Shown in pieces: positions 28,701 through 31,042 of a stretch of DNA of 64,000 nt; the first letter of the stretch is position 1, and each line of letters begins with the position of its first letter. Origin of the DNA: an uncultured Clostridia bacterium. GTDB lineage: Bacteria > Bacillota > Clostridia > TANB77 > CAG-508. The position numbers and the translations under genes are program-made. The notes under the pieces were generated by a model. That model saw only the letters and a program-made list of their open reading frames with translations, was not told where the DNA came from and did no database searches. Location: the NCBI GenBank assembly GCA_947306755.1, contig CAMZHI010000002.1:18934-82933 (forward strand), given 5' to 3'.

Positions 28701-31042
28701 GTTGGTTGTGTTTCTATTATTGGAATTATTGGAATTTCTTTTTTATCTTCTACAACAATATCAATATTTTTTTCTTCTTCTGTTTCATATTCTTCTTTTT
28801 GTCCATCTTGATTTCCTTTTACTATTAAATGCTCATTTACATCATTCTCTCTTACTTTTCTGTTAAATTCTTCAAAAGGCATTTGTTTGTTTAATAATGG
28901 AAAATGTGGATCATATAAGGTAACTACTTCATTATTTATTGAAGCAATTTGATATTCATCTGCTCCAATATATACTGTATCTCCTAGATGGTATTCGTAA
29001 TGTTGTTTTTCTGCATCTTCTTGTTCTTCAAGTAGTCTTGCATTTTCTCTTAACTCTCTTGCCTGTTCCTGTTCTTCTTTCCATTTTGGATATTGTTCTT
29101 TTTCTTTTGAATTAAGGTATCTATCAAGTCTTATAAGTTCTTTTATTCTACTTTCAACTTTATACCAATTAAGTGTAATCTGTGGTGCATTTTCTCCATA
29201 ACCTCTATATAGTGTTATTCCTTTTATTCCAAAATCTGCACCTACACCTGTTCCAACAGAAACAGAACTTGTCCCACCAATTCCATATTCGTGTTTTAAA
29301 AAATCTGCATTATCTTTTGCTGACAAACTTTTTTCAAATTGTTCATAGATTCTAAATTTACCTTCTGCAAAATGACTGCCTTCTTGTAATGCTACATCTA
29401 TCAATTCTTGGCTAAAAGTAAAAGTAGGTGCATTTTCTGTCCCTACTTCTAACATTTGTATTTGGTCACTAACACTTTGCAATGGTTTATGTTTGTCGTA
29501 AAAATCATTTATCATTATCAAGCCATTGATATATTCTGCAATGTGTTTCCAAGTGTAATATACTTCTGCATCTCTTGATAAGTAACTACCTTTCCATAAA
29601 TGTAAAACATTTTCGTAAGTTTTATATCCTACTCTTTCATCATCTACAACAATTTCTGTATAATCATCATTAAATACTTGTTTTATAAATTCTGTTCTTT
29701 CATTTATATCTTCGTGTAACTTATAAAAGTCTTTTATTTCCTGTCTTGTTGCTCTTAAATTATGTGCTTCTTTTAAGATTCCACTTGTATATTTATCTTG
29801 TAAAAAGTCTAGTTTACTTTCTCGTTCTTCTTTGTTTAGAAATCTACGATTAGTTTCTAGTTGTAAATTAGTTCGCTGGCTACTATCTCCTCTGCTGTCA
29901 TCTTGAAGTTCTGCATCAAGCCCACCCATTTCATTTGCTCTTTGGCTTTCATTTCTTCCGTCACTTTCTCCTTCTCTGCTAATTCCTTGACTATCTGGTC
30001 TATTCTCCTCGTTGCTGTTTCCTGTATCTCTGCTAGGTGGCTGTTTAGTGTCCCCTCTATCCTCATTATTGTCAATTCTGCTTTCTTGTGTTCCTTCAAG
30101 TATCTGTACCTCATTCTCGCGTATTTGCCTGTTGGCATCTTCTTCTCTGTCATCACTAGATTGGGCATCATATAATCTCCCTGTTTCGTGTACTCTATTT
30201 TCGTCATTTTCAACTCCTCCTTCATTTTTATTTTTAACAGTATCATATATTTCTTTATTTATTTTTTCAATGGTGCGATTTTTATTATTTTCATTTTTTT
30301 GTAGTTCAAAAACAGTTCTTGCAATTTGTCTTAATCCCATTTCTGCTATATCACTTACTGCCATTCCAAGTCCTGTAACTGTTTGATAACTATTAAAATA
30401 TTTAACATAAGAAAAATCTTGCTCTGTTAAATATTCTTTTGGATCTAGTCCACATCTTGTCATTATCATATAATAAACACTTGCCCAAGTTGTTGCTGTA
30501 ACTGCTATTCTAATGTCGTGTTCATTCATATCTTCTAGCATTGTTCCTTTTTTGTTATTATATATGGTTTCTATATAATCTTCAATGTTATCTTCTACCA
30601 TATTATAACTTGCAAGATTTATCGCTGATGCTAATGACTCTTTATTACTTATTTCTCCAAAATTGCTTTCTAGTGCCTCAATTATTTCACTTTCATATTC
30701 TGGCTTTAAACTCCACAATTTATATTCCGTATTTTGTTTATTGTGCGTATCTGATATGTCAAAAACAAATCTAAAAGGATATTGCCTATTTTCTGCTTTG
30801 TCAAATACCATTATTGGTGTTGTGTCTTTATTTACCCATCTTCTTAATTTATTATTCCACTCATCTATTGAAGCACAAGCCTTTGCATCTGGTCTTTGTG
30901 CATAAATTAAGATTTGGTCATCAAAGTCATATTTAAAGTTCCACGAACTACTGTCTAAAAAGGATTGCCAACTTTGTTCATCTTTTGTTACTGTACTTAT
31001 TGTTTCTTTATAGAGTGCTTTCGTTTCTAATATTCTTCCCAT
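25735..31042 (-). CDS. Polyvalent methylase/helicase protein, exon 1 (N-terminal domain, disordered linker, N6-adenine MTase-like domain, helicase N-terminal half)
   Basis: Start with RBS GAGGGGAGGG. MTase motifs [11 protein letters not shown] and VGNVPF. Helicase motif [11 protein letters not shown] and motif [10 protein letters not shown] at the exon end. Exon 1 plus exon 2 gives about 2400 aa. Confidence 0.8.
29857..30207 (-). CDS. TnpV-family ORF embedded out of frame inside the polyvalent gene
   Basis: [19 protein letters not shown]...[18 protein letters not shown]...[12 protein letters not shown]...[35 protein letters not shown] fits the TnpV pattern (G.Y.PNL...GKY.RMR..YLKEH...HL.E...VTE..KA..QM.WV..MN...AEE.V..E.IY). 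A GGAGGAG RBS lies 6 nt upstream of the ATG at 30207. Confidence 0.55.

Follow-up and report, generated by a model that had tools for sequence, protein, structure and literature searches.

The window analysed here is a stretch of 64,000 nucleotides from an uncultured Clostridia bacterium (GTDB lineage Bacillota; Clostridia; TANB77; CAG-508; assembly GCA_947306755.1, contig CAMZHI010000002.1, positions 18,934 to 82,933). Its minus strand encodes a giant multidomain protein of the polyvalent type, and wholly within the gene for this protein, out of frame, lies a second gene, tnpV, for a protein of the TnpV family. The giant open reading frame (ORF) occupies 25709..31042 on the minus strand (1777 aa) and is open throughout 29857-30207. 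The features that make up the nested arrangement are as follows:

31047..31056, minus strand: Shine-Dalgarno (SD)-like sequence GAGGGGAGGG of the giant gene, 4 nt 5' of the giant ATG at 31042
25735..31042, minus strand: exon 1 of the giant gene, encoding the ArdC-N-like head, the linker, an LPD-type region, an N6-methylase motif and the N-terminal half of an SNF2/DEAH helicase (from the ORF and Pfam)
30272..31042, minus strand: N-terminal ArdC-N-like domain (N-domain), giant aa 1-257, with an AlphaFold2 (AF2) fold of predicted local distance difference test score (pLDDT) 80-97
29834..30271, minus strand: disordered hydrophilic linker as predicted by AF2, giant residues 258-403, of which residues 279-395 share DNA with TnpV
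30220-30214, minus strand: SD sequence GGAGGAG of tnpV, 6 nt 5' of the ATG at 30207
29857..30207, minus strand: tnpV coding sequence (CDS), 116 codons and a TAG stop, lying inside the giant gene with a frame offset of +1 nt (Pfam TnpV)

The nested protein matches the Pfam TnpV profile (PF14198) along its full length, covering profile positions 1-111 of 111 with an E-value of 2.1e-37 and 127.9 bits against a cutoff of 27. The longest form of its ORF spans 29857..30246 on the minus strand (129 aa), and translation from the SD-adjacent ATG at 30207 gives 116 aa with the C-terminus ELIYN*. The giant start and this ATG are 835 nt apart (31042-30207), a distance not divisible by 3, and the two reading frames therefore differ, with giant codons starting 1 nt 5' of those of tnpV. 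The protein thus presents what is expected of a family member: a length of 116 aa, an SD sequence and ATG of its own and, as described below, purifying selection. A first-pass annotation, made from the letters of the window alone, had proposed that a complete TnpV gene with a strong ribosome-binding site (RBS) of its own lies out of frame in the giant ORF, and that this ORF remains open over the same 351 nt, where it encodes a disordered-looking linker. All these points are borne out by the window and, as far as the nested gene, its start signals and the open giant ORF around it are concerned, by every homologue that we examined.

We built an AF2 model for giant residues 1-520, in which the N-domain (1-257) is predicted with a pLDDT of 80-97 and the region that follows the linker (404-520) with one of 73-88, whereas residues 258-403 have values of 24-39 and no secondary structure. 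Of the residues of this linker 82% are D, E, K, R, S, N, Q, G, P or T, and its grand average of hydropathy is -1.77. The SD sequence, ATG and stop of tnpV correspond to giant residues 274-276, 279 and 395 respectively, so that the nested gene fits inside the disordered segment. Directly over the SD sequence the giant frame reads KGG, EGG or ERS in different homologues, and the near-invariance of the Gly-Gly pair is accounted for by the SD sequence being read in the other frame. The linker is hence best described as a predicted disordered spacer that would join the ArdC-N-like head to a methylase/helicase body. This body is recognized by matches of the giant ORF to the Pfam models ResIII, SNF2-rel_dom, DEAD, Eco57I and Methyltransf_25, and homologues of the protein bear LPD11, N6_Mtase and SNF2 domains; several enzyme domains, namely an N6-methylase and a SWI2/SNF2 helicase, are thus combined in one polypeptide, as is typical of polyvalent proteins. 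The identity of the head is less direct. The window copy of the N-domain has no Pfam or PDB match, and ArdC was not recovered in the PDB either by a sequence-profile search with the N-domain or by a fold search with the model of residues 1-520. Its assignment as ArdC-N-like is based on the Pfam ArdcN matches of four distant members among 21 aligned members of the family (best E 5e-6) and on the name that NCBI gives to distant homologues from Listeria, "ArdC-like ssDNA-binding domain-containing protein".

The first-pass annotation had suggested that homologous polyvalent genes be compared for conservation of the embedded ORF and its RBS. A protein search with giant residues 1-520 found 636 relatives, and the 18 that were aligned (38-59% identity) all have the linker, without gaps and with an unvarying length, which would be odd for a disordered linker and is expected of one that overlaps a gene. 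In each of 80 homologous loci taken from GTDB species genomes, with N-domains 37-65% identical to that of the window, a TnpV ORF is found at the same place and in the same relative frame, with the giant frame open throughout. The TnpV ORF is intact in 79 of these, encodes 116-118 aa, and is preceded by AGGAGG, GGAGG or AAGGAG ahead of its ATG in all 80 loci (81/81 sequences). The nesting extends to a widespread gut lineage with 58% GC, whose TnpV is represented in RefSeq as "MULTISPECIES: TnpV protein [Bacillota]", and to giant "SNF2-related" genes with N-domains only 23-32% identical to that of the window (where most of the domain aligns). The latter are carried by Clostridium botulinum pCDC3875, C. 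perfringens JXJA17 p3, Enterococcus faecalis pAT22-a and pMP8-1, Listeria innocua pLI100, Bacillus thuringiensis pMC183 and a Selenomonas plasmid, and in each of them a TnpV-like ORF lies in the +1 frame directly after the N-domain; the three distant copies that were tested against Pfam TnpV all scored above the cutoff (E 6e-26, 4.7e-24 and 4.2e-7). Further plasmid copies with an N-domain upstream (Monoglobus, Cohnella and two Subdoligranulum records) have no stops in the giant frame, which forms open frames of more than 1700 aa. These relationships were accessible to protein-level searches only: DNA-level searches of the region against plasmid and phage collections gave no matches, and neither TnpV nor the giant protein had a match in NCBIfam. 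Altogether both frames are open in every related giant gene examined, that is in about 110 loci from many lineages of Bacillota.

A second open frame might in principle be a by-product of composition, i.e. of purine-rich, T-poor DNA, with the giant ORF representing a fortuitous run-on through tnpV. Taken by itself, the window copy gives this idea some ground. The coding strand of the tnpV interval has 152 A, 96 G, 53 C and 50 T, which amounts to 71% purine and only 14% T, and its GC content is 0.41-0.44 as against about 0.27-0.30 in the flanks, just as the first-pass annotation had described it (purine-rich and less AT-rich than its surroundings). If the synonymous codons of the window tnpV are shuffled within the gene, the giant frame stays open in 32% of the trials. 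If the gene is redrawn with the codon usage of the flanks, a mean of 8.3 stops arises and 0 of 300 trials are open. Two plus-strand frames had likewise been described as open here; the ORFs in question (29903-30175 and 30012-30386) do overlap the interval, but each spans only part of it, and all three antisense frames have 2-5 stops within it. The evidence against chance from the window alone is moderate, and it is the comparative data that are decisive.

For this comparison we used 43 non-redundant sequences, which share less than 95% nucleotide identity in tnpV and fall to about 36% amino acid identity, and are therefore not near-clonal. The giant frame has no stops in any of the 43, nor in any of the other loci with an N-domain; by comparison, 9-29 stops are found in the third sense frame and 0-12 in the antisense frames, with one antisense frame open in 21 of the 43, a point that favors a role of composition. 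A stop in the giant frame requires a tnpV codon ending in T before a codon starting with AA, AG or GA. Third-position T is found at 0 of 1829 sites before such codons, compared to 450 of 3086 (14.6%) elsewhere (Fisher p 2e-97); in other words, T is freely used at this position but never where a stop would arise. With flank codon usage 6-13 stops are expected per homologue, with a probability of an open frame below 1/300 for each, and even under the conservative within-gene shuffle the median probability is 0.017 per sequence. Stand-alone tnpV genes point in the same direction: those on plasmids that have no ArdC-N-like domain upstream carry 3-14 stops in the corresponding frame (L088, L090, L091, L092, L094 and L096) in spite of a similar T content (0.19-0.23), and stand-alone copies overall carry 1-22. 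As an independent control, 80 IMG/VR loci were selected by their TnpV instead of the giant gene; 13 of 13 that have an N-domain upstream show an open frame, versus 3 of 64 that lack one (p 3e-12), so that 61 of the 64 stand-alone genes have stops. Of the three exceptions one is part of a giant ORF that has been rearranged, and in the other two the open stretch is no longer than tnpV itself. Hence both frames have been kept open in the homologues beyond what composition allows, and these comparisons refute the by-product explanation, which has practically no chance of being right. The earlier remark that composition helps is true of the window copy under shuffling, but leaves the open frame itself unexplained, since stand-alone genes of similar composition carry 1-22 stops; the accompanying judgment that an unbroken second frame is unlikely by chance was sound, although it could be only moderately supported from the window.

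As a separate observation, one IMG/VR locus (L113, 2811-6353) had been entertained as an embedded tnpV without an N-domain and was rejected as such, being really a giant ORF with its upstream part replaced. Its tnpV sits in an open giant frame of more than 1180 aa, the ArdC-N-like head is missing, and the upstream sequence is unrelated and filled with stops, pointing to the boundary of a rearrangement or insertion some 190 nt 5' of tnpV.

That both frames are open does not mean that both are under the same selection. The mean pairwise nucleotide difference at the three tnpV codon positions is 0.324/0.229/0.445, which is almost the same as in the single-coding N-domain (0.322/0.238/0.431) and as expected of a normal gene. 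Read in the giant frame, the lowest variability (0.229) falls on third positions and the highest (0.445) on first positions, the reverse of a selected frame. A simplified OLGenie-like count on pairs in three identity bands, which are phylogenetically non-independent, gave an omega of 0.22-0.36 for TnpV, with a pN/pS of 0.16-0.48 for the N-domain, and an omega of 1.15-2.6 for the giant frame within the overlap. Substitutions that are synonymous in tnpV and change the linker occur at about 1.1-1.35 times the synonymous rate of the adjacent N-domain. In terms of protein sequence, the representatives have a mean amino acid identity of 0.559 in TnpV, 0.554 in the N-domain and 0.396 in the linker. 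Selection in the overlap is thus asymmetric, with amino acid constraint in the tnpV frame only and the giant frame merely avoiding stops. Of the two frames of the nested pair only the inner one shows amino acid constraint, and the check that had been proposed, for suppressed synonymous variation in both frames, accordingly gives an unequal result, the giant frame being held to stop avoidance alone.

These measurements also bear on the alternative that the linker is a sequence-specific functional part of the giant protein, such as a binding or processing site, which would make this a case of true dual coding with both proteins constrained. The linker is indeed constant in length and gap-free in all homologues, retains its polar character even in GC-rich lineages, and displays recurring giant-frame motifs such as RQIRxNE, QESRI, NEMG and DDSRG. 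However, constraint on tnpV alone predicts the constant length and the recurring motifs. The reversed codon-position variability, the omega above 1, the accumulation of tnpV-synonymous linker changes at or above the neighboring synonymous rate, the lower identity of the linker (0.40 versus 0.56 for TnpV and 0.55 for the N-domain) and the lack of any structure predicted by AF2 all run counter to a sequence-specific role of the linker, which we regard as unlikely. The opposite alternative, in which the embedded tnpV is a decaying, unexpressed relic of an old insertion and the giant protein alone matters, could draw on one locus with a premature stop in tnpV and an intact giant frame (L027, considered further below) and on TnpV having no known function. 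It is very improbable in view of the 79 of 80 copies that are intact, all with SD sequence and ATG, the omega of 0.22-0.36, which is similar to that of the neighboring N-domain, the recognition of the family by Pfam even where the host domain is only 23-32% identical, and the confident AF2 model of TnpV.

The conservation of the arrangement, the selection pattern and the initiation signals lead us to infer that both products are synthesized, and we favor a model, with a probability of roughly 80%, in which one mRNA would be read from two initiation sites, TnpV being made from the internal RBS and the giant protein by read-through. Under this model the 351 nt at 29857-30207 would be translated in two frames from a single transcript. 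Ribosomes starting at the giant RBS (ATG 31042) would make the ArdC-N-like head and then cross the tnpV DNA in the giant frame, producing a sequence-indifferent, hydrophilic and disordered spacer of about 145 residues, followed by the methylase/SNF2-helicase body, which has no start site of its own. Other ribosomes would start at the internal GGAGGAG-N6-ATG and make the folded TnpV of 116 aa. Evolution preserves the amino acid sequence of TnpV and its start signals, while the other frame is barred only from acquiring stop codons. The nesting might ensure that TnpV and the polyvalent protein are expressed together, for instance soon after transfer. The first-pass annotation had offered as alternatives that the linker was overprinted on tnpV or that tnpV is expressed from within the large gene; on the present evidence both halves would hold together.

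Dependence of the body on read-through is indicated by the start signals downstream. In 42 of the 43 representatives no SD-preceded start exists in the giant frame beyond the end of tnpV, and often more than 100 codons pass before an in-frame ATG is reached; hence the downstream domains can be made only by ribosomes that read through the overlap. Independent translation of the body, or re-initiation after the tnpV stop, was considered and rejected for this lack of an SD sequence and start nearby. As to the initiation of TnpV, its ATG is invariant in 81/81 sequences while the overlying giant-frame residues vary (N/D/Y followed by G/D/E/V). The RNA around the tnpV RBS has a minimum free energy of -6 kcal/mol (z +1.7), with less structure than in shuffled controls, and its predicted fold shows nothing by which initiation might be regulated.

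An SD-like element just upstream of a +1 frameshift site is well known from prfB, and this raises the possibility that GGAGG stimulates +1 ribosomal frameshifting at the present locus, so that some ribosomes, instead of or besides internal initiation, would make an ArdC-N-TnpV fusion terminating with tnpV. In favor of this, tnpV lies in the +1 frame with respect to the giant gene, with the SD-like element just upstream, and in the 43 close homologues the 5-52 codons that precede the ATG are free of stops in the tnpV frame, so that a shift there would not be cut short. However, frameshifting needs no ATG, and the ATG is nonetheless invariant in 81/81 sequences in spite of the varying giant-frame residues. 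The 6-9 nt that separate SD sequence and ATG are the spacing of an initiation site, no slippery or hungry codon in between is conserved, and the stand-alone tnpV genes encode the same protein of about 116 aa. Moreover, L093, L098, L099 and L102 have a tnpV-frame stop directly before the start codon, which excludes entry by frameshifting in these four. Frameshifting thus seems quite unlikely, with a small probability left for the close homologues, and internal initiation is the best-supported route to TnpV.

Certain observations weigh against the model of two initiation sites on one mRNA. Beyond the 32% of shuffled window copies that stay open and the simplified counting on non-independent pairs from which the omega values were obtained, these include two loci with disruptions. 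L027 (3848-4192) has a premature tnpV stop at codon 68 with the giant frame intact, which implies that TnpV is dispensable at least transiently, or else reflects an assembly error. L089 (Monoglobus plasmid, 4193-4960) has a stop inside the ArdC-N-like domain with tnpV intact. Both stops could be real decay or assembly errors. Finally, TnpV is without a detectable structural or functional relative, so that any reason for the nesting is speculative. Its AF2 model (pLDDT 85) shows an N-terminal β-hairpin and four or five helices, and a fold search with this model against the PDB and BFVD gave no match with E <1. A role of TnpV in excision or transfer has only been postulated (PMC3158075, PMC12084326).

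To better understand the provenance of the nested gene, we compared the history of TnpV with that of its host. The pairwise identities of TnpV and of the host N-domain correlate with r = 0.89, which together with their equal mean identity points to co-divergence rather than repeated capture. TnpV is present even where the N-domains are only 23-32% identical, and the description of the window tnpV as "captured", if understood as a recent event, is therefore not upheld. In a neighbor-joining tree of TnpV, based on 116 residues and a biased sampling, the deepest branches (C. botulinum, C. perfringens, Bacillus, Enterococcus, Listeria and Selenomonas) are all embedded, and the stand-alone copies, including one adjoining a serine-recombinase gene and others on Salmonella and Campylobacter plasmids, are interspersed with embedded ones at no fewer than three points. 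The tree weakly hints that nesting may be ancestral. Taking this further, we tentatively raise the idea, which at present we would doubt more than believe, that the nested position is the ancestral and principal home of the TnpV family, and that TnpV is an obligate partner or regulator of ArdC-N-headed polyvalent proteins, made in amounts governed by the flow of ribosomes along the giant mRNA. On this view the tnpV genes that stand alone in Tn4451-type transposons and in integrative and mobilizable elements (IMEs) would be escapees. If so, few long nested genes of bacteria, phages left aside, would be as widely conserved as tnpV, which would have gone unnoticed because gene callers disallow such overlaps.

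Same-strand, out-of-frame nesting is in itself already known. In Bacillus subtilis comS, encoding a peptide of 46 aa, is nested out of frame in the giant surfactin synthetase gene srfAB, where it overlaps a catalytic domain and is confined to a narrow lineage. The likeness to the present case is considerable: a small gene with its own initiation signals lies wholly inside a very large multidomain gene of a Firmicute, on the same strand, out of frame and, in the case modelled here, on one transcript. However, TnpV has 116 aa, belongs to a Pfam family and is kept in every related giant gene examined across the Bacillota, and the host frame over tnpV appears to be an unconstrained spacer. Among phages, Rz1 within Rz of lambda, and E within D and B within A of phiX174, are comparable in being fully embedded, on the same strand and out of frame, with their own RBS, with both products needed and with an arrangement conserved among relatives. 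In those very compact genomes both frames are sequence-constrained, whereas only the tnpV frame shows amino acid constraint here, in a large conjugative element without obvious compaction pressure. Long conserved same-strand nested genes of this kind are textbook examples in tiny phage genomes and very rare in bacterial elements. What sets the present case apart is the combination of an old, folded, family-level protein on the inside with a sequence-indifferent tether on the outside. In this unusual division of labor all the amino acid constraint falls on the inner gene, and for the outer gene the shared DNA serves only to supply an open, disordered connection.

The nested TnpV is of the same family and size as the stand-alone TnpV of the Tn4451/Tn4453-type mobilizable transposons and of MOBQ IMEs, and all of these are found on mobile elements of Firmicutes (PMC3158075, PMC12084326). 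The stand-alone genes have a serine recombinase or relaxase gene as neighbor, and the frame concerned is broken in them by 1-22 stops, whereas the window copy lies inside a polyvalent gene; the stand-alone tnpV of L091, for instance, adjoins a recombinase gene, in the way that tnpV of Tn4451 adjoins tnpX. Iyer et al. 2017 (PMC5512222) described polyvalent proteins that begin with an ArdC-N header at the N-terminus, and proposed that they travel with the DNA into the recipient. The giant protein resembles these in its ArdC-N-like head, followed by methylase and SWI2/SNF2 helicase modules, and in its conjugative-element context. TnpV, overlapping frames and nested genes are unmentioned in that account (PMC5512222), whereas here the disordered segment after the header doubles as a second gene. 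In the full-text literature (8 million texts) that we searched on TnpV/PF14198 and on polyvalent proteins with overlapping genes, no description of the nesting of tnpV was found. TnpV, which has had no assigned function since Tn4451 was described, would thus be tied to the anti-restriction "polyvalent" proteins of conjugative elements, and this offers a testable lead to its role. Several of the affected plasmids reside in tractable hosts (Enterococcus, Listeria and C. perfringens), making the model directly testable.

The arrangement also exposes a systematic error in annotation by pipelines of the PGAP and Prodigal type. In some records PGAP calls TnpV but neither the ArdC-N-like head nor the giant gene (L081 and L093), or begins the SNF2 gene after tnpV (L104); in others (L098-L103) only the giant CDS is called and no TnpV. 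In the GC-rich loci L082, L083, L086 and L087 other gene callers have placed a spurious ORF of 214-284 aa on the strand opposite the ArdC-N-like domain.

The giant gene of the window is in addition interrupted by a group II intron just after helicase motif II (DEAH; VDEAHNYKN). The parts of the gene beyond exon 1 are:

22945..25734, minus strand: group II intron with a reverse transcriptase (RT)/maturase ORF at 23112-25022 (Pfam RVT_1, Rfam and 5' splice site)
21026..22944, minus strand: exon 2 of the giant gene, reading ..LFFLYTKMHNV.. and encoding the C-terminal half of the helicase (Pfam Helicase_C, E 3e-8); its start is approximate

The intron is marked by the 5' splice site GTGCG at 25734, by the RVT_1 match of the RT ORF (E 5.7e-33) and by the Rfam matches RF02004 (25435-25588) and RF00029 (22945-23029). 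The apparent stop of the giant ORF at 25709 thus lies inside the intron, so that the protein continues in the ORF 21026-23008, which contains the Helicase_C domain.

Upstream of the giant gene the window encodes:

31667-35944, minus strand: surface protein of 1425 aa with 10 SpaA repeats and a thioester domain (adhesin)
36859-37776, minus strand: ParB homologue
39729-41243, minus strand: prolyl-tRNA synthetase

The order of adhesin, small ORFs and giant gene recurs in the homologous loci L081-L087. The homologous loci lie on plasmids or in regions resembling integrative and conjugative elements, some of them adjoining MobP2 relaxase genes. The window locus fits an integrated conjugative element, and the tRNA synthetase may mark its chromosomal border.

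A further peculiarity concerns the methylase portion of the giant gene, about 2.5-3 kb downstream of tnpV. In about 20 of the 43 non-redundant homologues an extra C is found directly after the Cys codon of methylase motif I ('tgtCggagttgg'). The window reads 'gagccatcttgtggagttgg' at this site, encoding EPSCGVGNF ('tgtggagttgg'). The loci with the extra C are L006, L031-L039, L043, L045, L046, L049, L051, L054-L056, L067, L074 and L078. In these the 0 frame stops 7-49 codons later, and the +1 frame goes on as GVGNFMGMLP. The insertion, which is identical in position and base, gives rise to a rare CGG codon and is found on separate tree branches, and many database proteins of 800-890 aa end at this very point (...EPSCRCW). 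It could be a programmed +1 frameshift of the hungry-codon type or a conserved split of the gene.

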